DNA of 64,000 bases from Candidatus Dojkabacteria bacterium (GTDB taxonomy: Bacteria > Patescibacteriota > Dojkabacteria > SC72): NCBI GenBank assembly GCA_012842045.1, contig DUTP01000001.1, positions 28,534-92,533 on the forward strand. Reading direction: 5' to 3'. Numbering within the stretch: position 1 is the stretch's first letter; every line of letters begins with the position of its first letter. Shown piece after piece: positions 11,859 to 39,808 of the stretch. The notes beneath the pieces are model-generated. The model saw nothing but the letters and a program-made list of their open reading frames with translations. It was not told the origin of the DNA and did not search any database. Both the position numbers and the translations under genes were made by a program.

Positions 11859-13679
11859 TTATTCTTTAGAAACCCTCAACACTTCTTCAAGTGTTGTAAT
11901 TCCTTCTAATGCCTTAAGATAACCATCTTGTATCATAGTTATCATCCCTTGTTCTATAGCTGCATTCCTAATGTCAGTATCCGTGACATCCTCCATTATC
12001 ATTCTACTAATCTTTTCAGTGATATCCAAAACTTCAAATATACCTGTCCTACCTGCATATCCTGTACCACCACAAAAATCACAGCCTTTACCCTTGTAGA
12101 GATACACAACTGGTACTCCATCTGGACCAACCTCTGGAGCTTTTAAAACAGTTGGTTCCGCTCCTTCTGCATTAGCAGAACTGTTCTTTGATGCAACTAA
12201 TTTATTTATATAAGCAATCAAGTCAAAACCATTAACGCTACCCATCACCTCATTAATATTCCTAAGTACCTCAGGAGTAACAGGATACGCTTCAATACAT
12301 TTCTTACAAATTCTTCTGGGCAACCTCTGTGCTGCCACAGTTCGAATAGTGGAAGCAAGCAGATAAGGTTCAATACCCATATCTACCAATCTTGGAATAG
12401 CAGCAGCTGCACTGTTCGTATGTAAAGTAGAGAGTACTAAGTGACCTGTTAGTGATGCCTGAACAGCAAGCTGAGCTGTCTCTCCGTCTCTAATTTCTCC
12501 AACCATTACAATATCAGGATCCTGTCTTAACACAGCTCTTAGAGCATTAGCAAAGGTAAGACCGACATCATCATTTATCTGTACCTGTGTAACACCAGGC
12601 ACTCTAATTTCGACAGGATTTTCCAATGATATAATATTAACCTTTGGATCATTAACCTTCATCAAAGAACATGCTAAGGTACGTGTCTTACCACTACCTG
12701 TTGGACCTGTAACCAAAACAATACCATTTGTCACAGAAAGTGCATCTACAAAAACCTTATAAGCATGACCTCTTAAACCCGTATCCTCTAAAGAGATATT
12801 TTCTGTGTCTGATTCTAACAATCTAAGCACAACCTTTTCACCATAAATCATCGGCATAATTGAGACTCTGACATCTATCTTACTTCCGTTCACCTGAATC
12901 TGGAACCTGTTATCTTGAGGGATTCTCTTCTCATCAATCTTCAGATTAGACATAATTTTAATTCTAGAAACAATCGCTGCACTAAGAGTTCTAGGCAATG
13001 TAAGTCTCTCTGTCATAACACCATTGATTCTAAACCTCACTCTAACCCTGTTTTCTAACACCTCTATATGGACATCTGATGATTTTGATTTTACAGCATA
13101 TTGAAGTATAGAATTAACAATTCTTGCAACAGGAGCAGAACCTATATCCCCAGAGAGTGCTTCTAAAGAATCGTCTGGACCAGCATCTAGTGTCGTCACT
13201 GGGATATTAGCATCCTCCAATGCATCTGCAACCTGAGCCCCCATCATGTCCCCAACTCTCCTATCTAATATCAACGATATGCTTGCTGGTGTTGAAATAT
13301 ACACCTGCACTCTTGTATCTTGTGGATACTTACTTTGAAGAGCCTGCGTTGCCTGAATATCGAAAGGATCTTCCATCGCAATCTTGACATATCCTTGCCC
13401 CCTCTCAAAAGGCACAGCCCTGTATCTCGACAGATTATCAATAGGGACCTCTGATAATACCCCTTCAGGAACAGTAATTGTTGAAAGGTCTATAAACGGG
13501 ATATTAAATATGGCAGATTTAGCTTTTGCCAAAACATCTTCATCAACCAGATTTAATTCTTTTATAATAACCTCTTCTGTTTTGTTACTCTTAGTCCTTT
13601 CTAACAGAACCTTCCTCACACCCTCACTATCGATAAGGTTGTTCTGCTGAAGATATTTAAGTAATGATGTCTGAGACAT
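11859..13679 (-). CDS. pilB: Type IV pilus assembly (extension) ATPase PilB (GspE family)
   Basis: GspE N-terminal domain, Walker A GPTGSGKT, His box LSTLHTN, C-terminal tetracysteine CKKC...CDFCGGTG zinc motif. Confidence 0.9.
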   Translation of the reverse strand: MSQTSLLKYLQQNNLIDSEGVRKVLLERTKSNKTEEVIIKELNLVDEDVLAKAKSAIFNIPFIDLSTITVPEGVLSEVPIDNLSRYRAVPFERGQGYVKIAMEDPFDIQATQALQSKYPQDTRVQVYISTPASISLILDRRVGDMMGAQVADALEDANIPVTTLDAGPDDSLEALSGDIGSAPVARIVNSILQYAVKSKSSDVHIEVLENRVRVRFRINGVMTERLTLPRTLSAAIVSRIKIMSNLKIDEKRIPQDNRFQIQVNGSKIDVRVSIMPMIYGEKVVLRLLESDTENISLEDTGLRGHAYKVFVDALSVTNGIVLVTGPTGSGKTRTLACSLMKVNDPKVNIISLENPVEIRVPGVTQVQINDDVGLTFANALRAVLRQDPDIVMVGEIRDGETAQLAVQASLTGHLVLSTLHTNSAAAAIPRLVDMGIEPYLLASTIRTVAAQRLPRRICKKCIEAYPVTPEVLRNINEVMGSVNGFDLIAYINKLVASKNSSANAEGAEPTVLKAPEVGPDGVPVVYLYKGKGCDFCGGTGYAGRTGIFEVLDITEKISRMIMEDVTDTDIRNAAIEQGMITMIQDGYLKALEGITTLEEVLRVSKE

Positions 13680-13797
13680 TACACTGGGCAGTATTCATAT
13701 TATCTCTTCCAGTTTAAGATAAAAAGGAATAATAGTCAACGAAGTTATATAACAAACTAGGTTCCATACTGTTCAGTAGTATGTGGTAAAATGAAAT

Positions 13798-14490
13798 ATG
13801 ACATATATTCTAGTTAACAAACAAGAAGACAGTAAAAAGGTTACTTTAAGGAAGTTTCTCAAGGAGATTTTTAAGAGAGAAATAACTTTAGAAGAACTCT
13901 ATACAAATCCAGATATTCATAATTTAGAGATTACTGACAAATTAAGCATAGGAATTGAAGATGTGAAAGATTTTCAAGCCAAACTAATTTACAAACCATT
14001 CCAAGAAGAAAAACAGGTTGGCATCATTCATTCTTCACAGAAACTTACTCATGAGGCACAGAACTCCCTTCTTAAAAGTCTAGAAGAGAGTGGAGACAAC
14101 ACAATATATATTCTCTGTGTTGACAATCAAAGAAATTTACTTCCAACAATCAGATCAAGGGCTAGAATTATCTATATCAAAAAACAAGAAAATAATGAAG
14201 AAGAGCAGGAGAGAGAAAAAGAGAAAGATTTTCTTAAAAAAGATTTAGTCGAACAATTTGAGATTGCCGAAAAAGCTTCTTCTAGTAGGGAGCTTTCCAT
14301 AGAGTTCATAAACACAATTGAAAAAATATTAAGAGAGGAGTTTGAAATTAAAATTAAAAATGGTAGTATTGAGGGTTCTAAAAAAATTCTAGAGGACTTG
14401 AAAGTAGTTGGCAAAAGTAGGGAGAAGATAGTCTCAAATTGTAATAGGAGATTGACTTTAGAAGCCATGGTTATGCAGTTAAGAATTTAA
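13798..14490 (+). CDS. holB: DNA polymerase III delta-prime-like clamp-loader subunit (minimal; lacks the P-loop region)
   Basis: Sensor and SRC-type motifs AQNSLLKSLEE and TIRSRARIIY typical of HolB/DnaX box VII-VIII. An HPD-like NPDIH is present. There is no Walker A segment at the N-terminus. Confidence 0.55.
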   Translation: MTYILVNKQEDSKKVTLRKFLKEIFKREITLEELYTNPDIHNLEITDKLSIGIEDVKDFQAKLIYKPFQEEKQVGIIHSSQKLTHEAQNSLLKSLEESGDNTIYILCVDNQRNLLPTIRSRARIIYIKKQENNEEEQEREKEKDFLKKDLVEQFEIAEKASSSRELSIEFINTIEKILREEFEIKIKNGSIEGSKKILEDLKVVGKSREKIVSNCNRRLTLEAMVMQLRI

Positions 14491-14515
14491 CTTTGTATGC
14501 TAAAAATGATATAAT
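14486..14515 (+). promoter_or_regulatory. Putative extended -10 promoter for gyrB
   Basis: TGaTATAAT extended -10 at 14507-14515, about 60 nt upstream of the gyrB ATG; the -35 is weak. Confidence 0.35.
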
Positions 14516-14565
14516 ATAGATAGACCAGTTCTCGGAATTGTAAAGGTTTAACTTACACTTTTTGA

Positions 14566-16485
<1,920 letters not shown>

Positions 16486-26551: not shown

Positions 26552-27580
26552 ATGGCAGAATTAAGTAGAAACGAAAAAATTGCCGGAGCAGTTATAGCTA
26601 CAACACTAGCAGGAACTGCATTCACAGGATGCGCAACAACAGGTATCAAATCAATTGAAGACTACGACAACGAAAAGAATGCTTTATCATTACAAATACC
26701 AACATCTCAACCAGAAGAAGACCCAAACGGTTTGCCACTTCCTACAATAGAAGCAGGAGAAAATAGCCCAGCAACACTAAAAATCTCTTTTGGAGCACTT
26801 GGGGATTTCGAAACACACCTAAACTACGATACGGGAATGTATCACTTAGGTCTCACCAAAGATTACAATGTCAAAGAAGGTACTAAGACACTAGAAGACC
26901 TTCAAAGAGACGGAGGTACAATTGGTCTAGAAGACATTCCTTTTGATATGGCTATCAATGTTAGCAGTGGAAGCGAAGGAAAGTTCTATGTGAACGATGA
27001 AGAGTGGGACTTAGGGAATCCTGCAGAGAGTAAAGATGGAGAGTTTGTGATAGAAGTAGGAAGCTCATTTCTAGCAGTATGGGAAGCAGGAGATGATGCT
27101 GCAGGATTAGAAATCATGATCTCACCAACTGGAAGTTTTGATGACTTTGATTATCCAGAAACCGTAAGACCCAATTATCAAACAGAAGAAGAACAGAGAG
27201 AATTCTCACCTTTAGGTTATGAAACAAATATACAAAAGCTAGGAACATACAAATGGGTTTATGATCCAATTCAAGAGATATTCATACTACAGATTGCAGA
27301 GAAGCATTTGGTAAAGAAAGGTGAAATGAATCTAGCAGACCTCAAGAGAGATGGTGGGAAATTTGTAATGTCATTCCCATGGGAGAGCAGACTAAATAGT
27401 ATTGTTGGTGAAGTTAGAATTGATGGGAAAGAAGTACTCAATGGAAATCCTGTATATGATGAGAATGGAAAAATGATAAACAAGGAGTACATTATTCCAG
27501 CAGATACTGTAATAGAAATCTTTTACAAACCAGACCCTAGTAATGGATTCCAAGTTGAGATAGATTGGCCAATGAAGTAA
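26552..27580 (+). CDS. Lipoprotein carrying two tandem copies of the module found in the preceding gene
   Basis: Signal peptide with lipobox AFTGC. Two repeats contain (T/N)L(E/A)DL(Q/K)RDGG ... (N/D)(D/G)(E/K)EW(D/L)LGNP motifs. Confidence 0.65.
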   Translation: MAELSRNEKIAGAVIATTLAGTAFTGCATTGIKSIEDYDNEKNALSLQIPTSQPEEDPNGLPLPTIEAGENSPATLKISFGALGDFETHLNYDTGMYHLGLTKDYNVKEGTKTLEDLQRDGGTIGLEDIPFDMAINVSSGSEGKFYVNDEEWDLGNPAESKDGEFVIEVGSSFLAVWEAGDDAAGLEIMISPTGSFDDFDYPETVRPNYQTEEEQREFSPLGYETNIQKLGTYKWVYDPIQEIFILQIAEKHLVKKGEMNLADLKRDGGKFVMSFPWESRLNSIVGEVRIDGKEVLNGNPVYDENGKMINKEYIIPADTVIEIFYKPDPSNGFQVEIDWPMK

Positions 27581-27585
27581 AGATA

Positions 27586-28413
27586 TTACTTTAATATCTT
27601 TCTAGAAAATTCAAACGCTTTCATAAAAAGAGTAGGGGGAAGAATACTAAGTATTCGAACTCCTACTTTTTGCATATTCCATATAACATATTCTCTAAAT
27701 GTAGGCTTAATATTTAAATTCTGTATAGCCCAATTCCTCATATCATTTGTTAATTTAAAATGTTCCACCATTTTAGACTGACTCTCTGTTTGAAAAGTCA
27801 TTCTGTATTTAAGTACAGTATCAGGTAAATTAGCAAATTCACCTTTTGTACTAAGTATGAGAAAAAGTTTTACATCTTCTACTTTCCACATATCTTCAGG
27901 ATAGAGACCTATCTCTTCTAATGTAGATTTTCTTAATGTAACAGCTGGATGTGCAAATGGTTGGAAGAGAAATCTGTTTTTCTTTAGGTCTTTATCATTC
28001 TGTGCATATTCCCTATGTCCAGTAATATTTGAATCTGCATCTATGATATCTATTTGACCACCTACAGCAACACAATTAGGATTACTTTCTAGATACTCAA
28101 CCTGTTTTTCAATTCTATCCGGATACATAATATCATCTGCATCCATTCTTGCTATGTATTTACCCTTAGATGCTCTTATGCCGATGTTAATGACATTACC
28201 TAAACCATTCTGTTTCTCTACTGGGAACACCTTTATCTTCTCTCCATATTCTTTTAGAATCTCTAAAGTACTATCCGTACTCTTGTCATCCACAACTATT
28301 ATTTCAATATTACTGTATGTCTGTGCAAGACAACTATCTATTGATTCTTTAATATATTTTTCGCCATTGTGAACAGGTATGACAATGGAAACAACAGCTT
28401 TATTTAAATCCAT
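27586..28413 (-). CDS. Family 2 glycosyltransferase
   Basis: VSIVIPVHNGEKYI, IIVVDDKSTD, DADDIMYPDRIE motifs (GT2 GT-A fold, DxD). Confidence 0.8.
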   Translation of the reverse strand: MDLNKAVVSIVIPVHNGEKYIKESIDSCLAQTYSNIEIIVVDDKSTDSTLEILKEYGEKIKVFPVEKQNGLGNVINIGIRASKGKYIARMDADDIMYPDRIEKQVEYLESNPNCVAVGGQIDIIDADSNITGHREYAQNDKDLKKNRFLFQPFAHPAVTLRKSTLEEIGLYPEDMWKVEDVKLFLILSTKGEFANLPDTVLKYRMTFQTESQSKMVEHFKLTNDMRNWAIQNLNIKPTFREYVIWNMQKVGVRILSILPPTLFMKAFEFSRKILK

Positions 28414-31400
28414 ACTTTCTTTGCTTTACAATTTTAACAATTAAGTATACAAACATAATGATAATTAGCAAATATCCGAAGTAGGAGAGTAGGTTAGGCC
28501 AATAGATGACTATTACAGAATCATACTCTTTACCCTCAGTATCCCAACCTTGTTTCCAACCTTTAATATCAACCCTATCCTCTTTCCCAAAGATTTTTAA
28601 TTGATCATCTTTCTTGGCTACAGCAAACCAATATTTAGATTTCGCTTGGGGTATAGAGATGAGAGTGTTTCTGGAAAGTTCTTGATCTTCTCCTAAGGTA
28701 TAGAGAGAACCATGCTCGTTTCTAGGAACAAGTTCAACCTCATGATATTCTCTTTCCACAGCTGCTTTGTAAACAGCATCATCCCAAACCTCTGGCTTTG
28801 GCATTACAACAAATTGCTTTAGTATATTTTCACTTAAATCCGCAAAACTAATACTATTGTAAGATGCATCCATTACACCTAAATCTTGCGCAGGTGAGAG
28901 GAATGTCTTTAGTACAGATTTTTCCTCATCAGTATAGAGAATATCATCAACCCAACATCTATCAGAGCCTTGGTATGTCAGACACAAAGAAGCGGGGATA
29001 TTTTTTAGATTCTCACCTTTCCAATACCAAAGATATTGATGGGCAGGAGTCGTTTGCAAAATATGTGCATACTGATTTACTCTCTGATTTTGCACTACTT
29101 GTTTCATTCCGTCTTCATATTTTGTGTTATGAGAAAGAGAACCATCTTCTGCTTTACTTGTTTCCCAAATAGCATTGTTGGTATCTTTGTTTGAGTAAAT
29201 ATAGCTATCATTCCCATACAAAACGGGCAATTCAACAAGGATGCTTCTTCTCTCACCGCCTAGCTCCAATACTTTCTGTTGGGTATCTATATATTCAGCA
29301 AACACTGGTGACTCTTGTATAGCTCCAGAGAGATTAATATCTATATTCCTAATATTTACCGATGCTTTTTCTGAGAGAGGATTGGATGCATATATTGTCA
29401 AAGAGAGGTCATCACTTCCTCTTAATGGTCTTGGTAATAATATGCTAATGTTACCATATCCAGAATCTGTACTAAAGAATTTCTCTCTGTTAACACATAT
29501 CCCTTCTTTAGCAGAGTAAAGACAGAAGCCAAAAGTTGTATTACTACTAGGCTCCCAGTTTACATCAATAGTACCAACATATGTAAGTCTTTTATCCAAC
29601 CTAATATTTACATACAAACAAGGTAATTCTGTAAAACCTTCTAACTTAAAACCTGATGCAATTGTTTCTTTTTTAACATCTGGTAATATGGCATATTCTC
29701 CTCCTGAACAATCTCCTGGCTGGGAGTGTGCCAACACATCAGTTAAAGGTTCCTCTCTCATAGAAGATGCTTTTACAAAAAATACAGAAGTTATCTCTCC
29801 AAACCTTGAAGTAAGAGAAACTCCTTCCGCCACTGAATTATCATCCAGTACATAACCATCTATAATGTAAAAGTTCTCTCCTTCATCATCTACCAGGAAC
29901 TCTTTATATGTATCATTAGTAATACCATTAAGTATTGGTAGTGCAGGAGACACTCTTATCCTATCTCCATATTTTTTAACATGTATTGGAGCATTATTAA
30001 TATCAGAATACGCAATATTTGAGTAGAGGTTTACTGGAATACCAGAATATTCTACCGATTGAGATAGATATCCATTTGTTAGGGACGGAGAAGATATTGG
30101 CAAATTCATCGGAACAATCCTTGGTTCCTGTTGTACATCACGAGTGAAAGATCCAACAGGCAAAGAATCTGATGTTCCTAGATATTCTACATATCGGACA
30201 TCTTTTTTATTAATCTTGTACAATGCAAGGAAGTCTTTCTCCCAGACAAGTTCTAAACCTTTAGCAATGTTCTCCATACTTTCCCAATTCAGAGCATGTC
30301 CATATCTCCCTTTCACAACACTCCTATCTACAAGAATATATCCAACATCATATTTCTGCATCTTCTCTAAGAACAACTCTCTGTCACCAGCATCAAATAC
30401 ATTCCTTATCTCCCACATAGCAACTTCGCCAACGTCAGACCCTATTGCCAAAGACATATCCATTACTGGATTGGGGATTATGTAGGAGATAAATTGGGAA
30501 CCAACAAAACCCCAATCATACTCCCTAAAATATCCGTTATTTGACGGTGGGGCGTAATATATTCTACTGTATGGGTCTGTCTTAAGAGCTTCTTTCAACT
30601 CAAAGTATTGTTCTGGGAGATTAACAGTAGCTCTTTGTGTAAAAAGGTATCCCCTAAAAAGATACTCTGAGTAGAAAAAGAGAGGGAGTACAACAATAGC
30701 TAAAGAAAAAAGAATAAATATATATCTCGAAACTTTTTTAAAGAAAGAGGCAAGGAAATTCAAAAGAAGAGCAAAACCAATGGTAGAGGTAAATGTTAAA
30801 ACAATTAGATATTGTTGGCCAACTTTAGATGATATCCATCTAAAAACCTGTTTAAATATACCCAAGTTTTCTTGAAGCCATATATATATTTCACCCAACG
30901 GAGGGTTTTGATTTTTCAGCAAGAAGAGCAAACCAAAAAGAAGAAGATAAAGGGGAAGTAAACTGTATTTTTTTTGAGCTATTATAAAAACCAATCCAAC
31001 CATAGAAAGGAAGAAGGGAAGAAGACCAACTACCTTGTAAAAATCATATTCCATATAGTCTGAAGATGGTGGAAAAATGTATGTATTGTTCTCAGGATTA
31101 TCCACCGTCCCCAGGAGCCTTGTATACAATCTTGCAGAATTTGGTAATGTCATCATCTCTTTCTCTAAATCAATAGTATTGGCTGTAATACTTCTGTTTG
31201 TGTAAGAGTCGATGATATTGCCACTCGTTGACATTGCATACTGACCGAATGGAAGTAACCAAAAGAGTTGTACTATTAAGAAGATACCAAGACCTTTCAG
31301 GATTCCTTTGAACCTTACTCTATGGTTCCAACCAAAATATATTAGGAATGCCGTTATTAAAACAATATTGACGAAAAACAGTGTACCTATTACCGCAGTT

Positions 31401-32008
31401 GATACAAAGAGAAGAGAAGCTATGAAAAGGAGGAGAGATTTACCATGAGAAGGATCTTTCATATACCAATAGCTTGTTAGAAGTACCAATGGAAGAAAAC
31501 CATACTGCGCTATATATGGCATCATGTTGAAATTAAATACCCATGCTGTCCATAGAGAAGAGAGATATATTAAACCAGCAAAGAAAAATATGTATCCTGA
31601 ACTTTTTGTATTCACTTTATCTCTCACAAGTTGGGATACTAGAGTTGCCATTGATAATGTACCTACACAAAGACAGAAGAGGGAGAAGAGTTGTGCCAAC
31701 AATTCATTTGGTAAAAACAAATCCGATATCCCAAAGAATATAGATCTAAATATATCCGCTTGTTCACTATCTGATGCAAAACCCAATACTCTGTAACTTC
31801 TCCATGCAGGAGATTCTAAATATCTCTGTACAGACATCCACGGGTTTAACTCAGGTGAATAGTTGTCATTAGATATTAGATGTTGTCCCCATCTAATAGA
31901 GAGGAAAGATATTAGTATCAAGAGAATAACTAATAATATCTGCCCATATCTTTGTCTGAATATGTACCAAAGTTTTTTAAGAAAACCTTTCATACTTAAA
32001 TATACCAA
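28400..32008 (-). CDS. 1202-aa polytopic membrane protein, probable GT-C-type glycosyltransferase (YfhO/AftD/ArnT-like) with a large extracytoplasmic domain and a C-terminal TM anchor
   Basis: About 450-aa N-terminal region with at least 12 predicted TM helices, then a ~700-aa hydrophilic domain, then a terminal TM (LLIIIMFVYLIVKIV). Flanked by GT2 genes. Confidence 0.45.
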   Translation of the reverse strand: MVYLSMKGFLKKLWYIFRQRYGQILLVILLILISFLSIRWGQHLISNDNYSPELNPWMSVQRYLESPAWRSYRVLGFASDSEQADIFRSIFFGISDLFLPNELLAQLFSLFCLCVGTLSMATLVSQLVRDKVNTKSSGYIFFFAGLIYLSSLWTAWVFNFNMMPYIAQYGFLPLVLLTSYWYMKDPSHGKSLLLFIASLLFVSTAVIGTLFFVNIVLITAFLIYFGWNHRVRFKGILKGLGIFLIVQLFWLLPFGQYAMSTSGNIIDSYTNRSITANTIDLEKEMMTLPNSARLYTRLLGTVDNPENNTYIFPPSSDYMEYDFYKVVGLLPFFLSMVGLVFIIAQKKYSLLPLYLLLFGLLFLLKNQNPPLGEIYIWLQENLGIFKQVFRWISSKVGQQYLIVLTFTSTIGFALLLNFLASFFKKVSRYIFILFSLAIVVLPLFFYSEYLFRGYLFTQRATVNLPEQYFELKEALKTDPYSRIYYAPPSNNGYFREYDWGFVGSQFISYIIPNPVMDMSLAIGSDVGEVAMWEIRNVFDAGDRELFLEKMQKYDVGYILVDRSVVKGRYGHALNWESMENIAKGLELVWEKDFLALYKINKKDVRYVEYLGTSDSLPVGSFTRDVQQEPRIVPMNLPISSPSLTNGYLSQSVEYSGIPVNLYSNIAYSDINNAPIHVKKYGDRIRVSPALPILNGITNDTYKEFLVDDEGENFYIIDGYVLDDNSVAEGVSLTSRFGEITSVFFVKASSMREEPLTDVLAHSQPGDCSGGEYAILPDVKKETIASGFKLEGFTELPCLYVNIRLDKRLTYVGTIDVNWEPSSNTTFGFCLYSAKEGICVNREKFFSTDSGYGNISILLPRPLRGSDDLSLTIYASNPLSEKASVNIRNIDINLSGAIQESPVFAEYIDTQQKVLELGGERRSILVELPVLYGNDSYIYSNKDTNNAIWETSKAEDGSLSHNTKYEDGMKQVVQNQRVNQYAHILQTTPAHQYLWYWKGENLKNIPASLCLTYQGSDRCWVDDILYTDEEKSVLKTFLSPAQDLGVMDASYNSISFADLSENILKQFVVMPKPEVWDDAVYKAAVEREYHEVELVPRNEHGSLYTLGEDQELSRNTLISIPQAKSKYWFAVAKKDDQLKIFGKEDRVDIKGWKQGWDTEGKEYDSVIVIYWPNLLSYFGYLLIIIMFVYLIVKIVKQRKYGFK

Positions 32009-32105
32009 ATTTATTTGACATAATCATCAAGAAGTACTAATCTGTATTAAAGAATCTGTCTACTTTAAGAGAAAGATTATGTATATAAAATATTAAACTG
32101 TCTAT

Positions 32106-34511
32106 ATGGGTATAGAAGACTTTGGAAGTTCTGATGTTTCCGTTGATATTCCAGACGTTCCAGTTGAAGTTCCTGTAACTCCTGTTAACAATACAGTTGA
32201 TGTGCCTACAGCTTCTACTGACACTCCAGTTGAAGTCCCAGGTGATACATCTACAACCCAGGGTGATATCTCAGAAAATCCTATCGAAAACAATATTAAT
32301 GTTCAGCCACAAACTGGTTTACAGAATGACAATGATGTTAGTAATATTAACAAGAGTCAAGATCCTGAATATATGCGGTACAGAACAGCATTGAATAGCG
32401 TAAGAAATGAAGACAGGACATTAATAGCAGAAGATAAAAGAAGAAGAGAAAGAGGAGACAGTGTTGCTACAATAATGGAGGATGAAGAAGCGAAGAGATA
32501 TGAGACAACTCTGGAACAAATGGATGGCAGACCAAACTTAACTACACTAGATCAATCACTAGCTAAGGATGATGCTGAAAGACAAAGCAAAGGAGATAGT
32601 GTTGCTACAATAATGGAAGATGAAGAAGCTAAGAGGTATGAAGCAACTCTTGAGCAAACTGTAAATAGACCACATATGAGTACTTTAGAGAGAAGTAAAA
32701 TGAGTAGTGAAACTCCAGTGATAGAAGACGATCAAACAAGAAGGTTACAAGAAACAATGGAAGAAACAGGACAAGAAATTCCAGAGCTTGGTACTGAAAA
32801 CATTGATAATCCAGAAGCTCTTCTGAATGAATCAAGACCTATTGCAGGCATAGACCCTGCCGAATTAAGTCGTAATCCATTCCATAAAAAAGAAGACTCT
32901 GAAACACCTATGCAAGGAGAACAATCAGCTGAAGGAAAACAACCAGCCGAAGAAGGACAACCAGCTGAGGGAGGACAACCAGCCGAAGAAGGACAACCAG
33001 CTGAGGGAGGACAACCAGCCGAAGAAGGACAACCAGCCGAAGGAGAACAACCAGCCGAAGGAGAACAACCAGCCGAAGGAGAACAACCAGCCGAAGGAGA
33101 ACAACCAGCTGAAGAAGAACAACCAGCTGAAGAAGAAGGAAAACCAAAAGAGGGTGAAGAAGAAACACCCGAAACTGAAATGAAACAAGATGCTACACTT
33201 GCAGAGATTGAAAAAAAGATGAAAGAATTTGAAAACATAATTAATCAATATAAACAACAATTGAAACAAGGAACACCTAAGACTCCTAGTACTCCTACAA
33301 AAGCACCAGACGCATCTGGAGGAAGAACACCAACAACCGGACAAGCAACTAGTGCCACTGGACAAAACACTGGACCAACACCAAGTATGACCGGACAAGC
33401 ATCTAGTACAACTGGTAGAACACCTGTTAAAACAGTCAGTAGCGAAGCTTCAGCAACAGCAACTCAATGGACTGAAGTACCGAAAGATATTAGGACAAGA
33501 ACCCCAGAGAATGAATTAAATGTAATAAATAGTAGAATAAAGGCTCTTGAAGACAAAGAAAAGAAAGAGCCATTAACATACGAAGAATATCTTGAATATA
33601 GAGAACTAAGACTACAAAGAGAAGGATTATCAAAAACCGCAGCTATTGAAGCAAAAGAGAAAGAAGAAAAGCATAAAAGAAAACTAAAGACCTGGTATAT
33701 AGTAGCTGGTTGTCTTGGCGGAGGTGCAGGACTATTTGGTGGCCAAGTTGCTGCAGCAGCAATAATAGGAGGAGGCGTAGTAGGAGCGGGTGCCTCTATC
33801 GTTGAATGGGTTGGCAAGAGAAAAGTAAAAAGCTTAACAGAACAATTGTCTAAAGCAAAAGGCGCTGAGAAAGCTGAATTAGAAAAGAAATTGAGTAAGT
33901 GGGAAAATGTTGTACAAGGTGCTAATGACACAAAGAAAGTAGTAGGCGTCTTCTTAGGTGCTGCAATTGGAGGTAAATTCTTAGGAAATCTCATCTTTGG
34001 ATCTGGTGGGTTAGGTGGAGCAATAGCGGGAAGCGGACTATTTGCAAAAGGATCAAGTGAAATTGAAAATTTAAGCCATAATACTGAAGGAACCGATGGC
34101 CCTGATATGCAACCTAATAACCCCACAACCACTGGGGTTGGCGGAGGCAAAGAAACAATAACAGCAGATGTAGATATTGGATTAGGTGGGGGAGATGCTC
34201 CCACTATTGAAGCAGGGTTTAATAGCGGAATGTTCGAAACTGGTATTGACCCTCAAACAGCTAAGAACCTTTTTGGTTGGGAAGGAACTAATTTCATACT
34301 AGGCGAAGCTGGTGGAGAACACGGTAGAATCCAAAAGACCTTCTTCGAAAGTATGAAAGCAGCATTAGGTGGAGGGCCAGAAGCGGAAGCAGCAATGAAA
34401 GGAGTCGATGCAGCAAGACAATATGACGGATTGCTTAAAGATGCTCTAAATGGAGCTGACCCAGTAGTAGCAGGACAAAATGCTGCAGCACGTCTTCAAC
34501 CACAACCATAA
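32106..34511 (+). CDS. 801-aa acidic low-complexity repeat protein with C-terminal glycine-zipper transmembrane hairpins
   Basis: ATG at 32106. Internal 15-bp (QPAEG)n tandem array, a duplicated RGDSVATIMEDEEAKRYE(T/A)TLEQ module, a T/P/S-rich linker, two Gly-zipper hydrophobic segments (GGGAGLFGGQVAAAAIIGGGVVGAGA and GAAIGGKFLGNLIFGSGGLGGAIAGSG). Confidence 0.6.
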   Translation: MGIEDFGSSDVSVDIPDVPVEVPVTPVNNTVDVPTASTDTPVEVPGDTSTTQGDISENPIENNINVQPQTGLQNDNDVSNINKSQDPEYMRYRTALNSVRNEDRTLIAEDKRRRERGDSVATIMEDEEAKRYETTLEQMDGRPNLTTLDQSLAKDDAERQSKGDSVATIMEDEEAKRYEATLEQTVNRPHMSTLERSKMSSETPVIEDDQTRRLQETMEETGQEIPELGTENIDNPEALLNESRPIAGIDPAELSRNPFHKKEDSETPMQGEQSAEGKQPAEEGQPAEGGQPAEEGQPAEGGQPAEEGQPAEGEQPAEGEQPAEGEQPAEGEQPAEEEQPAEEEGKPKEGEEETPETEMKQDATLAEIEKKMKEFENIINQYKQQLKQGTPKTPSTPTKAPDASGGRTPTTGQATSATGQNTGPTPSMTGQASSTTGRTPVKTVSSEASATATQWTEVPKDIRTRTPENELNVINSRIKALEDKEKKEPLTYEEYLEYRELRLQREGLSKTAAIEAKEKEEKHKRKLKTWYIVAGCLGGGAGLFGGQVAAAAIIGGGVVGAGASIVEWVGKRKVKSLTEQLSKAKGAEKAELEKKLSKWENVVQGANDTKKVVGVFLGAAIGGKFLGNLIFGSGGLGGAIAGSGLFAKGSSEIENLSHNTEGTDGPDMQPNNPTTTGVGGGKETITADVDIGLGGGDAPTIEAGFNSGMFETGIDPQTAKNLFGWEGTNFILGEAGGEHGRIQKTFFESMKAALGGGPEAEAAMKGVDAARQYDGLLKDALNGADPVVAGQNAAARLQPQP
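32931..33140 (+). repeat. In-frame 15-bp tandem repeat (~14 copies) encoding (Q-P-A-E-G/E)n
   Basis: caaccagc(c/t)ga(a/g)g(g/a)ag(g/a)a repeated head to tail; a coding repeat inside the 801-aa ORF. Confidence 0.85.
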
Positions 34512-34538
34512 AAATAATTAATATAAATTAATACTGCC

Positions 34539-35018
34539 ATGGATATCAGACAACAAATAGAAGGAGTTAAACAAGACCTTCTCTCAGAAGGCCTAATGAA
34601 AGAAAAACTCAATGAATTAGAAGGTCTTGCTGCTGAAGAAGCTATAGAACAAGCCCTACAGGATTTGCAAGAGAAAGACATTGCTACAATAGAAGCACTA
34701 GAACAAAGCTTAGTCATGCAACCAAAATCACTAGAAGAAGCAGAAAAAAACATCCAACTGATTTTTGATACTGCATATGGTGAACAATCAGAAACAATGA
34801 GACAACAAATGTTATATACATACCTTAGTAATGTACTTGCAAATATACGAAACAGTAAAGACCTTCTCGCAAGATACCAAGCTGGAGATCCAACCGCTAT
34901 AGCTGTAATTGAAAGTAACAAGAATAACCCTGAGGTTGAAGAACTTCTTCAATATATGGAAGATGCCGACAGAACATCAGAAGACACTCCTCCAACTGAA
35001 GAGAAAGACAAGGAATAA
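34539..35018 (+). CDS. Hypothetical acidic helical protein (159 aa)
   Basis: ORF 27 nt downstream of the repeat protein. E/Q/L-rich, no TM. Confidence 0.45.
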   Translation: MDIRQQIEGVKQDLLSEGLMKEKLNELEGLAAEEAIEQALQDLQEKDIATIEALEQSLVMQPKSLEEAEKNIQLIFDTAYGEQSETMRQQMLYTYLSNVLANIRNSKDLLARYQAGDPTAIAVIESNKNNPEVEELLQYMEDADRTSEDTPPTEEKDKE

Positions 35019-35024
35019 TGTTGA

Positions 35025-36326
35025 TTACTTTAATGGATGGTATTGTCTTACTGTATCCTCAGCGAATTTTTCACTAGCATGAACATATTTTGTTGTCGTA
35101 TTTAAGCTAGAGTGACCTAAAAGTATCTGTAAAGCCGCTGGGCTAGCACCTTTCTCAGCCATATATGTAGCAAAACCATGCCTCAAACTGTGAGCAGAAG
35201 TCTTCATTTGAATACCCAACTTCCTCCTATATTCCGCTATCTTTTCCTGAAAATAGTTTGTAGAAATCCTAGAACCTTTCTTTCCATACCTTCCACCAGA
35301 GAAAGGAATGAAGAGAGCAGGGGAGTCAAACTTTTTCAAATAACCAGTTTCTCTATACTTCTCAACTATTTTTATATACTTCAACTCATCATCAAACATC
35401 TCAAGATTTAACATAGATGACTCCTCTTCATCTCCACTACCAGATGTTTCACGCTCAGGGGTGAAACTTTTTATCTCTTTCTGTTGCTCCTCATCAGTAA
35501 AAGCATAATTAAGCCTTACTTTTAGGTAGTTATTCAACCATCTAAGACTTCTCGGTGTCATATATACAGACCTTTCTTTTCTTCCTTTACCTAAAATATA
35601 CATATGACCCTCAGTATTAATCTGATCCAAATCAAGACCAATTAATTCAGAAATCCTCATACCAGTAGCAAAAAGCATCTCTAACATACACCTATTTCTC
35701 AATGCAACTTTCTCATCTTTCTCAAACTCCATGGGAGATTCAATCAATCTAATCATCTCTTCCATCGGAGGAATCTTCTTCATACGCTTCTCAGCCTTCA
35801 TCATTCCAATTGCATCAGGTGGTAACGGTATCTCCAAGTCCCATTCAATTCTAAATTTCAAAAATGACCTCAAAGCAGACAACATTCTATTTATACTATT
35901 CGGATCCAAACCATCAGAACTCTTAGATGAGCGAACTGAGCTTCCAAGACTCCCGTAGACCTTCTTGTAGATATCAGAGAGAAATCCACTCTCAAAACCA
36001 GGTGTGTTCATACCACCCAAATCTTTCGAAGACCTCAGAGAGCCTCCTAGAGCCTCGCCCTTGCTTAATGTTGTTATATCAACATCTTTTACATATTCAT
36101 CCCTTATTTTATCCAAATCTTTAATATGTTCACCAGCAACTAGATACCCTTTGTATGCACTAATGTCCTTTTTAGTAACTTTCATAAAATCTACATCTCT
36201 AAAGTGTAGAAACACAGCAAAGATAGAAAGGTCTCGAGCATAGTTAACAATGGTCTGGGGACTGTAATTGTTGTTCTGTAAATCAATCAAGAAGTCATCC
36301 TGATCATTTAGTTTTGGTATCTCCAT
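35025..36326 (-). CDS. Tyrosine recombinase (phage-integrase family; XerC/XerD-like with a low-complexity insertion)
   Basis: C-terminal catalytic motifs HSLRHGFATYM ... LLGHSSLNTTTKYVH (R-H-R-Y family). N-terminal SAM-like core-binding domain. 433 aa because of an S-rich insert. Confidence 0.8.
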   Translation of the reverse strand: MEIPKLNDQDDFLIDLQNNNYSPQTIVNYARDLSIFAVFLHFRDVDFMKVTKKDISAYKGYLVAGEHIKDLDKIRDEYVKDVDITTLSKGEALGGSLRSSKDLGGMNTPGFESGFLSDIYKKVYGSLGSSVRSSKSSDGLDPNSINRMLSALRSFLKFRIEWDLEIPLPPDAIGMMKAEKRMKKIPPMEEMIRLIESPMEFEKDEKVALRNRCMLEMLFATGMRISELIGLDLDQINTEGHMYILGKGRKERSVYMTPRSLRWLNNYLKVRLNYAFTDEEQQKEIKSFTPERETSGSGDEEESSMLNLEMFDDELKYIKIVEKYRETGYLKKFDSPALFIPFSGGRYGKKGSRISTNYFQEKIAEYRRKLGIQMKTSAHSLRHGFATYMAEKGASPAALQILLGHSSLNTTTKYVHASEKFAEDTVRQYHPLK

Positions 36327-36362
36327 ACTTTATCTTACTACAAAAATTAAAATAGAGAAATT

Positions 36363-36756
36363 GGAGTAGGGGGCTGTTTTTTTGAATTCCTGGAAAAAGA
36401 AAAAAGAATGAGAAAAATAGAAGAAGGAACAAGAAAGAACAGATAAGGATGAGGAATATGATATGTTGAATGTTTAAATAATTAAGCATTGTAAGTACTT
36501 TCTTGATTTTAAATATACAGAACCGCACATAATGGCGATTATACTCGGTTACATATTCTAGAATTGTAACATCTTTTCTAAGAGAGTGGTACCCTGATGA
36601 TGGACATTGATTGAATCTTAAATCTTCCCAAATCTTTTATTTAATCTCTACCTATTATAATACCCAAGTTAATAATATTATTAGCAGAAACTTGTCCACA
36701 CTGATTACTATAGGATATTGAACACTATAGGTTTCACTGGTGGCACCCCCTACTCC
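36363..36756. repeat. 11-bp GC-rich perfect inverted repeat pair (GGAGTAGGGGG / CCCCCTACTCC) bracketing a ~370-bp AT-rich noncoding segment
   Basis: Copies at 36363-36373 and 36746-36756. A T7 run follows the first copy. No ORF in between; an internal direct repeat actatagg x2. Confidence 0.6.
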
Positions 36757-36773
36757 CCTATGCTACAGCACAC

Positions 36774-37586
36774 CTATATATTCAAAATGAATATTAACAC
36801 TGAAGAAAGTATTAGAAAGAAAATATATAACCAAAAACTTTTAACATAACCCTCCGATATCTTCTCATGGGTTACAACATTAACACAGAGAAAGTACCCT
36901 ACTACTGGTGCAAAAGACAAAATCTCATGCATATTGCCAACAAATATTACTGCAACAAGCAAAACAGCCATTATTAATGTTGTTACAAAGCTCTTTCTTA
37001 ATAATTCTTTACCTTCAAGATCAATGTTAATATAGTGAAGAGAAACTATTAGGAAAAATGCTAATAATACCGCAGGAAGAGATATATAGACTGGAAGACC
37101 ACTTGCAATAAGGCTAAAGGTAAGAAAATAAATCATAAATATTGATGAAAGATATGAAATTGTCCTACCAACTTGTGCAAGAGGTATAGGTTTAAACTGA
37201 TTTACATTCAAAACATTAACCATCAAGAAAACAAAGTAATTAGCAAAAAAGACTGCTATCATAAGGAATAGTAATATAAATGCTTCATATATCCTACTGA
37301 ATTTTTGAAAGAAGAAGAACTCTACAAACAGGTATTCAGAGAGGATAAAAAGAGAGGCTTGGAATATATACAGAAAAGATTTCTTCTTTACCTGAAAGTT
37401 AAGTGCCCAAAGAAGACCTACGAAAGTAACTCCAAAATATGCAAGAGAATTAACAAATATTCTCCAAACAGGATATGTTTCTCTAGATACAATTTTGAAG
37501 ATAAAGATAGGTAGAGCAACTAATGCCGCTAATAGCAACAGTTTTCCTCTCTTTTCACTATCTACATTACCCTCTTCCCTTCTCAT
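36774..37586 (-). CDS. Hypothetical polytopic integral membrane protein (270 aa)
   Basis: 8-9 predicted TM helices; no assignable motif. Confidence 0.5.
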   Translation of the reverse strand: MRREEGNVDSEKRGKLLLLAALVALPIFIFKIVSRETYPVWRIFVNSLAYFGVTFVGLLWALNFQVKKKSFLYIFQASLFILSEYLFVEFFFFQKFSRIYEAFILLFLMIAVFFANYFVFLMVNVLNVNQFKPIPLAQVGRTISYLSSIFMIYFLTFSLIASGLPVYISLPAVLLAFFLIVSLHYINIDLEGKELLRKSFVTTLIMAVLLVAVIFVGNMHEILSFAPVVGYFLCVNVVTHEKISEGYVKSFWLYIFFLILSSVLIFILNI

Positions 37587-38604
37587 TTTCTAATGATTCT
37601 AAATATTTTAATCCTTTCTGTGTAAGGACTCTACCCCTACTCGTTCGTTTGATAAAACCACATTTCATAAGGTATGGTTCATATACATCTGCAACTGTAT
37701 TCTCATCTTCCGAAATTGATGCTGCAAGAGTAGAAAGACCAACAGGTCCTCCTGCAAAATGCTCTAGCATTGTCTTTAATATTATCCTATCTATCCTCTC
37801 AAGCCCCTGTTTATCAGTACCTAATAGCTTTAATGTATTCTTTACTACATCTTTTGTAATCTTGTCATCACCATGACTTTGTGCATAGTCTCTACACCTT
37901 CTCAAAAGCCTCAACCCTACTCTAGCAGTACCTCTTGAAGCTTCAGAAAGAGCTTTTACAGCATCCTTCTCTATCTCTAAGTCCCACAGTCTACATGCTC
38001 TTTCAAGTATCTCTACAAGGTCACTTTCTGAGAAGAAATCTAATCTCTGTATTAACCCAAACCTATCTCTCATAGGGGAACTAATCTTCCCTATCTGTGT
38101 AGTAGCACCAATTAGTGTAAATGGCTCTAAATTAAGCCTAATCGTCTTAGCTGTTGGACCTTTACCCATGACAATATCCAACATTCTGTCTTCCATAGCA
38201 GGATACAAAATCTCCTCTACCACCTTCGATAATCTATGTATTTCATCAATGAAAAGTACATCATTAGCTTTCAAACCAGTTAATATTGCAGCTAAATCAC
38301 CCTGTCGTTCAATGGCTGGACCTGACGTAACCTTGATGTTAGCCCCTATTTCATTTGCAATAGCAACAGCAAATGTAGTCTTACCAAGCCCTGGAGGACC
38401 ATAGAAGAGAATATGATCGATAACTTCCTTTCTCCTTCTAGCAGATTTGATCATAATTTTTAAGGTTTCTTTCTCTGTAACTCTACCGATAATTTCATCC
38501 AATTTACTTGGTCTAATTCCTTCCTCATATTGTCCACTATTCTTGTTATCAGAGGATTTCTGTACCTGAGTACTTTTCTTTTTCTCTTTACTTGATTCTA
38601 TCAT
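37567..38604 (-). CDS. ruvB: Holliday junction branch-migration helicase RuvB
   Basis: Walker A GPPGLGKTT, Walker B LFIDEIHRL, sensor and RuvB C-terminal winged helix. Confidence 0.9.
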   Translation of the reverse strand: MIESSKEKKKSTQVQKSSDNKNSGQYEEGIRPSKLDEIIGRVTEKETLKIMIKSARRRKEVIDHILFYGPPGLGKTTFAVAIANEIGANIKVTSGPAIERQGDLAAILTGLKANDVLFIDEIHRLSKVVEEILYPAMEDRMLDIVMGKGPTAKTIRLNLEPFTLIGATTQIGKISSPMRDRFGLIQRLDFFSESDLVEILERACRLWDLEIEKDAVKALSEASRGTARVGLRLLRRCRDYAQSHGDDKITKDVVKNTLKLLGTDKQGLERIDRIILKTMLEHFAGGPVGLSTLAASISEDENTVADVYEPYLMKCGFIKRTSRGRVLTQKGLKYLESLENEKGRG

Positions 38605-39188
38605 TACTCTTTGATTACTTTCTTAATTAATTCACCAATATCAATATCTTTTTCCTTAAGTAGTATCTTTTCTGCTAGTTCTGCTTTTTCTTTAATTGCT
38701 TTTGAATCAAAACCTAATGCTTTTAGAGCATCTTTAAGATCTTTTAGTATTAAACTATCTTCTGTAGATTCTTTTGTTAAATCAATGATACCTCTTAATT
38801 CAATAATAACCTTTTGAGCTCTCTTCATACCTAAACCTGGTGTTTTACTAAGACTTTTTGCATCACCCTCCTCTATTATCATCTCTAATTCTTTTCTAGA
38901 ATATGTTGAGAGTATTGCCATACCTATCTTAGGTCCTACACCTGATACTTGGATTAACTGTTCAAAGAATTCTCTCTCTTCTTCTGTTTGAAAACCGTAT
39001 AGTGCTTGGGTGTCTTCTCTTACATGAAAATGAGTAAAAAGTGAGTACTCTTCTCCTAGCCTAGGTGTTAGATATGTTGATGGAATACATATTTTGTAAC
39101 CTACTCCACCACTTGTGAGAATATCAATATATGATTCTTTAGCAGTAGTAGTTTTATTTTGAACTTCTCCCTTTATGAAAGATATCAT
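38604..39188 (-). CDS. ruvA: Holliday junction DNA-binding protein RuvA
   Basis: MISFIKGE N-terminus, GVGYKI OB domain, helix-hairpin-helix VSGVGPKIGMAIL. ATG at 39188; the track ORF uses an upstream TTG. Confidence 0.8.
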   Translation of the reverse strand: MISFIKGEVQNKTTTAKESYIDILTSGGVGYKICIPSTYLTPRLGEEYSLFTHFHVREDTQALYGFQTEEEREFFEQLIQVSGVGPKIGMAILSTYSRKELEMIIEEGDAKSLSKTPGLGMKRAQKVIIELRGIIDLTKESTEDSLILKDLKDALKALGFDSKAIKEKAELAEKILLKEKDIDIGELIKKVIKE

Positions 39189-39207
39189 ATCTATATTATA
39201 TACTATT

Positions 39208-39696
39208 TTACTCAATATTCCTCCTAACAAGCACTTCTGTTGTTATAGCAATAGCAATGGCATCTGCAGCATCATCTGGTTTAGGTAACTCATCCATACT
39301 ACATAGCATCTTTACAGCTTCTTGTACCTGCTTTTTATTAGCTTTACCATATCCTGTTACAGTACTCTTTACTTGTAATGGTGTCATTTCAGAAAGAGGT
39401 AAGTTAGATTGTTCCAAAGCTAACAAAACTACACCCCTAGCCTCACCTACTGATATTGCTGTTTTTTGATTATTGTAAAAAAGAAGTGTTTCCATACCAG
39501 CATACTCTGGTTTATACTTCTTTACTAACTCTAATACATCTTGATATATCTCACATAGTCTTTCTGATACAGTAAGACCTTTTTTAGTAGTAATACAACC
39601 ATAGTCTATTACATGAGGTTTTGAATCATCATCAAACTCTACAACAGACCAACCTGTTGTAGCTAATCCTGGATCTATACCTATTATTCTAAGCAT
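39208..39696 (-). CDS. ruvC: Crossover junction endodeoxyribonuclease RuvC
   Basis: IIGIDPGLATTGW N-terminus with the catalytic Asp; RNase H-like fold motifs. Confidence 0.85.
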   Translation of the reverse strand: MLRIIGIDPGLATTGWSVVEFDDDSKPHVIDYGCITTKKGLTVSERLCEIYQDVLELVKKYKPEYAGMETLLFYNNQKTAISVGEARGVVLLALEQSNLPLSEMTPLQVKSTVTGYGKANKKQVQEAVKMLCSMDELPKPDDAADAIAIAITTEVLVRRNIE

Positions 39697-39808
39697 ATAT
39701 ATCCATTATACTATACTCTTGAAAAGAAAAATTTTACTTACCAAACAAACAATAAGTGTTCTGAGAACAACTAGAATTTATTGAATTGGAATATAAACAA
39801 AAAAGGTT

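Follow-up and report, generated by a model that had tools for sequence, protein, structure and literature searches.

Bacterial surfaces are often determined by hypervariable loci that are swapped between conserved flanks, among them capsule and O-antigen loci and the 'metagenomic islands' of pilins and surface proteins. By analogy, these may be the closest counterparts of a two-gene cassette found within 64,000 nucleotides of DNA from Candidatus Dojkabacteria bacterium (contig DUTP01000001.1, positions 28,534 to 92,533; that whole stretch is here called the window). The cassette consists of a gene for an acidic protein of 801 amino acids (aa), probably a three-pass protein of the cytoplasmic membrane specific to the Candidatus Dojkabacteria lineage, and a small acidic open reading frame (ORF) just downstream, here called the partner ORF. 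Like the surface-determinant loci, the cassette keeps to one chromosomal slot, and identity breaks sharply at the conserved genes on either side; near-identical backbones carry alleles that are old, stable and very divergent from one another, and the envelope genes nearby are mosaic as well. Unlike them, the variable unit is an orphan membrane protein with a cytoplasmic partner, not a glycan cluster or a secreted or sortase-anchored adhesin, and the largest variable part of the protein is predicted to be cytoplasmic.

Other described proteins resemble parts of the 801-aa protein. Chlamydial inclusion membrane (Inc) proteins have in common a bilobed hydrophobic domain, little sequence similarity and fast evolution (PMC3656976, PMC3290821). 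The family of the 801-aa protein is Inc-like in its bilobed hydrophobic block of about 40 aa (median 38, where an Inc would have about 40-60), its coiled-coil or disordered flanks and its poor conservation outside the block. Incs are secreted by a type III system into the host vacuole membrane, whereas no secretion system is evident for this family. It also adds a third transmembrane (TM) helix, a C-terminal domain and a cytoplasmic loop with a conserved motif, and is always paired with a small partner gene; the IncD model is touched by a single member, below threshold. Pore-forming proteins such as the colicins, ClyA and XaxA share with the cassette a disordered N-terminus, long helices, an uncharged hairpin of about 40 aa and a small gene directly downstream. 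The cassette departs from them in showing no similarity of sequence or fold, in residing at a chromosomal core locus instead of a plasmid or toxin island, and in that the downstream gene encodes a soluble protein that shows no co-variation with the variable C-terminal domain. Mycobacterial Rv2743c (PspM, PF25587), finally, has the same succession of a basic juxtamembrane stretch and a two-helix Gly/Ala-rich hairpin, and two of 45 family members match it weakly there. The same stretch, however, matches a holin model equally well, no pspA-like gene was found beside the locus and the remaining architecture is unrelated. Neither identity was accepted: the member P0002 scored 23.3 bits against the Rv2743c/PspM cut-off of 27.7, over the TM hairpin only, and the 801-aa protein itself gave no match; single members scored 19.4 bits against a cut-off of 28.4 for holins (LydA/Holin-X), and the 801-aa protein, chromosomal and far above the limit of 150 aa set for a holin in a phage lysis cassette, matches no PHROG. 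Every weak match obtained, whether with holins, Rv2743c/PspM, IncD or SLATT, was below threshold and confined to single members, in which it covered the TM hairpin.

What differs between close relatives is the whole gene of the 801-aa protein. When the window is aligned by blastn with the related locus L001, nucleotide identity is 85% over positions 27954-32011 and 95% over 35023-39697, falls to 66% in the partner ORF, and across 32012-34507 there is no nucleotide similarity at all. Synonymous divergence (dS) follows the same pattern: 0.05 for a 270-aa membrane protein, 0.16-0.26 for RuvA, the Xer recombinase, RuvC and RuvB, 0.83 for the 1202-aa neighbour on the left, and about 2.5, which is saturated, for the partner ORF. 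Accelerated evolution of a protein in place cannot raise dS, so the cassette must represent anciently diverged alleles imported by recombination. Among genomes whose Xer is at least 96% identical to that of the window, there are four alleles less than 40% identical to one another (those of the window, L001, L025, the same as L096, and L083). Even the TM core is just 20-31% identical between such near-identical backbones. The best matches of the window allele come from genomes with only about 75% Xer identity, and no second copy of it turned up in any collection searched. L001 and L025 each serve as a species representative in GTDB, so the genomes compared belong to very close sister lineages and not, strictly, to a single species.

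Hypermutation is ruled out, because alleles sampled twice in independent records are 100% identical and unchanged in length (L025/L096 over 300 aa, L002/L063 over 555 aa). Two pairs show vertical inheritance of the allele (L003/L005 and L011/L008); in these the nonsynonymous divergence (dN) of the large gene is 3-6 times that of its flanks and below dS. Saturation of dS in every allele pair that can be aligned rules out the use of dN/dS proper. The gene is under purifying selection overall; it is constrained and functional. The divergence ends on the right exactly at the stop codon of Xer. Site-specific exchange mediated by Xer was considered for this breakpoint and rejected: there is no conserved site beyond the stop codon, and for that reason homologous recombination within conserved flanks is the better explanation. 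Old and stable alleles thus appear to be exchanged by homologous recombination.

Relatives of the protein are few and anonymous. When aa 470-801 were searched exhaustively with phmmer, 46 clusters emerged from 1.84 billion representative sequences at E<=1e-3, the best at E=3.6e-25 and 36% identity. Clustered at 90% identity, the homologues come as 1-3 sequences each, and the sole name that any source gives them is 'hypothetical protein'. Further members were collected by synteny at the same position: 16 reference genomes, two ENA contigs and 17 Xer-anchored metagenome loci. The family was absent from all non-Dojkabacteria loci fetched and is apparently confined to Dojkabacteria. No significant match to the 801-aa protein was found in Pfam, NCBIfam, PHROGs, PADLOC or PDB sequences, and the first four have no family for the partner ORF either; against PDB sequences, neither protein reached an E-value below 0.09, whether as a single sequence or as a profile. 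Word-indexed homology searches, full-length or C-terminal, were swamped by low-complexity words and yielded nothing useful, the profile version giving one protein. Scanning by exact peptide words turned up no relative in GTDB genomes, IMG/VR or JGI metagenomes, and the protein itself is not on record. The literature searches found no description of the family. The features described for the protein are far beyond chance, as judged by high repeat scores, a core kept in 46 clusters and dN lower than dS in the allele pairs that can be aligned. This is a new orphan family and architecture, outside any curated family, that behaves in a known evolutionary mode.

Members have nothing in common beyond a core of about 185 aa, in which two helices lead into a basic juxtamembrane stretch; a Gly/Ala-rich hairpin, a basic amphipathic loop and a TM helix bearing an invariant GxxxG motif follow. 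From N- to C-terminus, full-length members begin with about 200-670 aa that lack a hydrophobic segment, followed by a basic KRERKxK stretch and the uncharged Gly/Ala-rich block, which in one subfamily has a central Thr-Pro. After the loop comes the second hydrophobic block, with motif GxxxGxxxG...FMGGxGL, then a low-complexity linker and a C-terminal domain of 100-130 aa. The N-terminal part (long, acidic, repeat-rich and mostly disordered) and the C-terminal domain are interchangeable modules that are unrelated between members. The N-terminal parts are the least conserved region, at 8-21% identity essentially unrelated, and their modules have been shuffled; 49 of 63 members have internal repeats of their own, with unrelated units. 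The C-terminal domain occurs in several types, and the type in the window, type B, is not detectably homologous to the commonest, type A (hhalign probability 1.9%).

The features of the cassette and its borders are these:

32106 to 34511, plus strand: gene of the 801-aa acidic membrane protein (ORF list, composition, exhaustive HMMER search)
32106 to 32360, plus strand: aa 1-85, acidic N-terminus rich in V/P/T/D/N, predicted to be disordered (composition, DVPVEVP-type repeats at 32133-32239, model confidence below 50)
32453 to 32689, plus strand: duplicated helical module GDSVATIMEDEEAKRYE(T/A)TLEQ (78% nucleotide identity; helices modelled at aa 87-134 and 146-186)
32914 to 33137, plus strand: in-frame tandem array (QPAEGE/QPAEEG/QPAEGG)n, 18-nt unit in 12.4 copies, predicted to be disordered (Tandem Repeats Finder score 315, 89% matches; model confidence about 35)
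33174 to 33503, plus strand: helix at aa 357-388, then a disordered T/P/S/G-rich part, aa 389-466, with an imperfect internal repeat (repeats, composition, AlphaFold)
33504 to 33689, plus strand: aa 467-528, start of the conserved core, two conserved pre-membrane helices ending in the basic juxtamembrane stretch KEKEEKHKRKLK (model confidence 90-98, alignments)
33690 to 33803, plus strand: aa 529-566, uncharged Gly/Ala-rich block of 38 residues, a likely helical hairpin (two TM helices or re-entrant; segment statistics, AlphaFold)
33804 to 33935, plus strand: aa 567-610, basic amphipathic loop with motif RIxxL...EEKxKLEKRIxxWxK, predicted cytoplasmic (alignments, charge, model confidence above 90)
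33936 to 34049, plus strand: aa 611-648, second hydrophobic block, taken as TM helix 3, with G618xxxG622 (alignments, segment statistics)
34050 to 34220, plus strand: aa 649-705, low-complexity linker rich in G/S/T/N/P, predicted extracellular (model confidence below 50, composition)
34221 to 34508, plus strand: aa 706-801, compact alpha-helical C-terminal domain of type B, with motif GWxGxN...GGxxGxxQxxFF
34539 to 35018, plus strand: small acidic partner ORF, 159 aa, isoelectric point (pI) 4.2, 27 nt downstream of the large gene
32009 to 32105, no strand: divergent intergenic region of 97 nt, shared with the operon of the 1202-aa membrane protein and a family 2 glycosyltransferase (GT2), at the left edge of the stretch without nucleotide similarity to L001
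35025 to 36326, minus strand: conserved Xer-type tyrosine recombinase, convergent with the cassette and outside it as a flank, whose stop codon is the right recombination boundary

An earlier sequence-only reading of the window had described much of this. The ORF it gave (801 aa, plus strand) agrees with the ORF call, the gene is single copy within the window, and the computed pI of 4.55 and net charge of -60 make the protein as acidic as was claimed. No signal peptide had been seen, and the first hydrophobic segment indeed appears only at aa 527. The N-terminus described as V/P/T/D-rich proves to be acidic and rich in V/D/N/T/P. The duplicated module was likewise recovered, as copies at 32453-32551 and 32591-32689 that are 138 nt apart; it recurs in the family member P0035 at 63% identity (E=8e-22). 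An in-frame QPAEG/E array is present, but its unit is not 15 nt in about 14 copies: Tandem Repeats Finder gives the 18-nt period listed above. The array had also been put forward as a likely site of length polymorphism between strains; the window allele occurs just once in the collections searched, and the two other alleles that were sampled twice show no change of length. On the minus strand within the array (window 32732-33398) are three antisense ORFs of 86-168 aa and eight 'terminator-like' hairpins. These were considered as genes and terminators and set aside as by-products of the repeats. Neither the large gene (32009-32105) nor the partner ORF (34512-34538) is preceded by a recognisable Shine-Dalgarno sequence.

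The second half of the protein also answers to the earlier description. The T/P/S/G-rich linker lies at aa 389-466 and contains an internal 46-nt repeat (33316-33415), the coiled-coil segment corresponds to long helices modelled at aa 357-388 and 467-540, and the Gly-rich C-terminal part has 24 Gly in aa 673-801. Of the two Gly-zipper hairpins that had been claimed, the two Gly/Ala-rich hydrophobic blocks were found (aa 527-571 and 609-648), while the second is less likely to be a hairpin: family statistics favour a hairpin plus a single TM helix. These statistics cover 48 members; the median count of uncharged residues is 38 in block 1 (range 29-44), which suits a hairpin, and 22 in block 2, which suits one TM helix. 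The second block of the 801-aa protein is unusually long, with an extra Gly-rich extension. No curated Gly-zipper family occurs among the Pfam matches of the protein or of 45 members.

AlphaFold was run with the family alignment. Two helices, 467-540 and 556-621, and the C-terminal domain score above 90 in its confidence measure, the predicted local distance difference test (pLDDT); aa 467-621 and 715-800 are the confident regions, and confidence is low elsewhere. A low-pLDDT turn at aa 539-557 separates two confident helices in the hairpin block. Modelled alone, aa 695-801 form a compact helical domain (aa 706-801) with pLDDT 90.5 and a predicted template modelling score of 0.82. The pLDDT is below 50 for 451 of the 801 residues, including aa 1-85, the repeat array, 390-458 and 620-708, in support of the earlier suggestion of a membrane-inserting, highly acidic, mostly disordered protein of envelope type. 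No structural relative of the C-terminal domain was found, and the full model, of low overall confidence, had no match at E<1 when compared by Foldseek with the PDB.

Charge gives the likely orientation. In the 48 members, the loop between the blocks is about 49 aa long with a net charge of +5.9 (+4 in the 801-aa protein), the 20 residues preceding the hairpin have a net charge of +2.1, and the tail is about neutral. Because the juxtamembrane stretch and the loop are basic, the positive-inside rule would assign the N-terminal part, like the loop, to the cytoplasm, and the linker and C-terminal domain to the outside. The predicted order is then a cytoplasmic N-terminal part, the hairpin, the cytoplasmic loop, TM helix 3, and finally the linker and a helical head outside the cell. 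Only four residues are invariant or nearly so in an alignment of 45 sequences: G535 and G538 in the hairpin, nearly invariant, and G618 and G622, whose GxxxG motif in TM helix 3 is the family's only invariant or near-invariant pair.

The partner ORF accompanies every family member where the contig permits. Across all types of C-terminal domain it forms one homologous family, with motifs AYG and KDLxxRYQAGDPTA and no relatives found, and it is uniformly acidic (pI 4.05-4.7, net charge about -18). Its divergence correlates with that of the TM core of the large protein (rho 0.63) and with that of Xer (rho 0.40), while TM core and Xer correlate weakly (rho 0.18). Parts of the cassette duplicate locally: in L001 a truncated second family member of 348 aa (13579-14625, minus strand) lies between the partner ORF and Xer, and two tandem copies of the partner ORF are seen both in L059 (7004-7770, plus strand) and in L065 (7819-8582, minus strand).

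Large gene and partner ORF share a fixed position on the chromosome, with Xer on one side and the membrane protein of about 1200 aa on the other. The sequence-only reading had placed the large gene next to a small acidic ORF and a tyrosine recombinase, and both do adjoin it. Thirty-six loci carry the family together with the partner ORF, without exception where the contig covers the site, and the large gene is single-copy at this position, among housekeeping and envelope genes, in most Dojkabacteria loci examined. On its right are Xer, an orphan 270-aa membrane protein, RuvB, RuvA, RuvC and YebC. On its left are VanY, a sortase, two GT2s and the orphan 1202-aa polytopic protein, transcribed divergently from it. 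The envelope-related genes on this side (VanY, sortase and the GT2s) count in favour of an envelope function.

I propose, tentatively and with slightly less than even confidence, that the 801-aa protein is a strain-specific envelope determinant, concerned with recognition of phage or host, and that it has a co-varying cytoplasmic partner. A membrane anchor of three helices, probably oligomerising through the invariant small-residue motifs, would present an exchangeable extracellular head, and would carry a long disordered scaffold on the cytoplasmic side. The acidic partner would dock on the basic cytoplasmic core. Whole alleles would be swapped by homologous recombination through the conserved flanks, and their diversity would be upheld by frequency-dependent selection on the exposed head, exerted by phages or by recognition of partner cells. 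The protein might then be a phage receptor or decoy, or a contact protein for a presumed host of the episymbiont. Entirely different versions in close relatives would be expected of a recognition protein that is specific to the strain, but not of a toxin.

Several observations weigh against this proposal. No link between the family and a function comes from experiment or homology, so that the function is inferred, and the host, the phages and the episymbiotic lifestyle are assumed from general knowledge about bacteria in the candidate phyla radiation (CPR). The C-out topology draws on charge statistics and segment lengths only; if TM helix 3 did not cross the membrane, the whole protein would be cytoplasmic and the argument from surface selection would fail. 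The N-terminal part, predicted to be cytoplasmic, varies the most. Selection from outside does not by itself account for this, and either hitch-hiking with whole-allele exchange or relaxed constraint on disorder must be invoked. Divergence of the partner ORF shows no relation to that of the C-terminal domain (rho 0.06). Finally, the pair is missing from the slot in four Dojkabacteria loci (L015, L017, L019 and L067), so it is not strictly essential.

An alternative view is that the protein is a membrane-tethered cytoplasmic scaffold or organiser, serving envelope biogenesis, division or chromosome handling, whose disordered acidic N-terminus recruits partners and whose variability is incidental, the product of weak constraint on disordered sequence and ordinary recombination and not of selection on surface epitopes. 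The bulk of the protein (aa 1-528) would lie in the cytoplasm and is the most variable part; the partner is soluble, acidic and presumably cytoplasmic; the position is fixed, with envelope genes on one side and Xer and RuvABC on the other; and selection on the gene is purifying overall. The disordered linkers of bitopic division proteins, ZipA and FtsK, are also highly variable. Relaxed constraint, however, raises dN and not dS, and the saturated dS of a cassette lying inside flanks at 0.05-0.26 requires the import of old alleles. The scaffold view would have to explain as well why the TM core itself has diverged to 20-31% identity in near-identical backbones and why a folded C-terminal domain is swapped between unrelated types. 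A housekeeping scaffold is also not expected to be missing from some lineages. I regard this main rival as doubtful.

It is improbable, in my view, that the protein is an effector exported to insert its bilobed hairpin into the membrane of another cell, in the manner of Incs or type III translocators, with the partner ORF as its chaperone. The hydrophobic block of about 40 aa with coiled-coil or disordered flanks and no signal peptide would suit such an effector, and the adjacent, co-varying, acidic and helical partner (pI 4.2) is like a secretion chaperone. Rapid turnover of alleles is typical of factors that interact with a host, and one member matches Pfam IncD weakly (E=6.8e-4). But that match is below threshold and confined to the single member, no genes for a secretion system were seen in the window and none of type III among the window ORFs examined, and no conservation at the N-terminus could serve as a secretion signal. 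The charges of the loop and juxtamembrane stretch fit insertion into the producer's own membrane.

The sequence-only reading had compared the protein to pore-forming or membrane-inserting toxins, a comparison that gains nothing from the searches: no significant match to a toxin, holin or glycine-zipper family and no structural match was found. As a specific explanation, a pore-forming or permeabilising toxin or abortive-infection effector, with the partner ORF as immunity protein or antitoxin, is quite improbable. Its Gly/Ala-rich hairpins do resemble those of colicin-type and other alpha-pore-forming toxins and of two-TM defence effectors, and a two-gene cassette with strong turnover from strain to strain is what one might look for. 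Single members also give sub-threshold matches to XaxA (E=0.47), the LydA holin (E=3e-4) and SLATT_1 (E=7e-3). These weak matches, however, all lie on the TM hairpin and are compositional, and nothing significant was found in Pfam, NCBIfam, PADLOC, PHROGs, PDB sequences or fold libraries. The best pore-forming models were Stonustoxin_helical in Pfam (E=0.33) and alpha-xenorhabdolysin A in NCBIfam (E=0.47, 9.7 bits against a cut-off of 125), with no consistent match among 45 members, and PADLOC matched neither the two proteins of the cassette, nor their neighbours, nor the L001 alleles. A polymorphic toxin with its immunity protein should combine a variable C-terminal domain, which is present, with a conserved N-terminal trafficking region, and here the N-termini are 8-21% identical and not a conserved trafficking domain. 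The downstream gene should co-vary with the type of toxin domain, yet the partner ORF is one family whatever the C-terminal type and shows no co-variation (rho 0.06), unlike cognate immunity proteins. Nor does a toxin fit a near-universal gene at a fixed locus in genomes of about 0.65 Mb.

It is highly improbable that the cassette was brought in by the neighbouring tyrosine recombinase as cargo of a mobile element, integrative or Xer-exploiting. In favour, the recombinase abuts the cassette, extra ORFs stand between the partner ORF and Xer in L001, L059 and L060, and divergence breaks off exactly at the Xer stop codon. Against this, Xer is a housekeeping gene, syntenic with RuvABC in every relative and 97% identical in the nearest one; past its stop codon the sequence contains no conserved site and no inverted or direct repeat; no tRNA gene is adjacent, and no viral contig with a relative was found. 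The extra ORFs are themselves duplicated parts of the cassette, and the pair is found at the same place in most lineages examined.

The surroundings of the slot show variability of their own. In lineages without the family, it is occupied by unrelated ORFs that are charged, P/T-rich or coiled-coil (L015 13725-17123, L017 13640-15189, L019 13687-14631), one of the occupants being a protein of 1132 aa that contains a hydrophobic, Gly/Ala-rich block of 50 aa. Downstream of Xer there seems to be a general site for variable proteins. Some family members come from very short contigs that end just past the gene (L061, 2165 nt; L062, 2621 nt), consistent with assemblies breaking at a strain-variable locus. 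The 1202-aa polytopic membrane protein (window 28400-32008, minus strand) matches nothing in Pfam, NCBIfam, PADLOC or PDB sequences. Its divergence from L001 is unusually high (87% aa identity, dS 0.83 against 0.05-0.26 in the other flanks), with nucleotide identity lowest, 77-81%, at 28.85-30.05 kb, and the variable envelope locus may include it. Two allelic classes are seen in the orphan multi-TM protein of 270 aa (window 36774-37586, minus strand), which is 99% identical in L001 and 64-66%, with saturated dS, in L025 and L083, despite an Xer that is 96-98% identical across all three; this looks like a second recombination mosaic nearby.

Xer itself, at 433 aa, is much longer than typical XerC/D. 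Its Pfam catalytic match spans aa 198-418 for a model of 172 positions, which implies large low-complexity insertions, and their lengths are conserved across Dojkabacteria. The RuvB of the window is 99% identical to that on JAGPFQ010000001.1, a contig of 645 kb, followed by matches in dozens of Dojkabacteria metagenome-assembled genomes. To the left of the 1202-aa protein, a 342-aa protein (window 26552-27580, plus strand) has a lipobox-like N-terminus (…AFTGC) and no family assignment; its residues 55-170 and 200-342 match the same region in L003, an internal duplication.

Dojkabacteria (WS6) are uncultivated, ultra-small members of the Patescibacteria, or CPR bacteria. This group accounts for a large share of bacterial diversity, and most of its members are thought to live attached to other cells. 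To my knowledge, almost nothing has been established about what determines the partners to which they attach or the phages that infect them. The locus offers a concrete and easily located candidate: a fixed slot by Xer and RuvABC, containing a single orphan membrane protein with an exchangeable domain predicted to lie outside the cell. The family was recovered solely by exhaustive profile search and synteny.

A bolder extension of the proposal, which I consider unlikely, is that the cassette is the host-range module of episymbiotic Dojkabacteria, setting their specificity of attachment. The role of the extracellular head would be to bind some structure of the partner cell, the three-helix anchor and the acidic partner would couple binding to the cytoplasm through the disordered scaffold, and whole-allele swaps by recombination would switch or broaden the host. 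Hosts do remodel their surfaces in response to Patescibacteria epibionts (PMC13622651), which makes an arms race at the surface plausible and says nothing about this particular protein. If the host-range idea were true, the 801-aa protein would be a recognition protein of a kind not described before and peculiar to CPR bacteria. The alleles of the cassette could serve as a strain marker in metagenomes, and could be correlated with the hosts or phages that co-occur with them.

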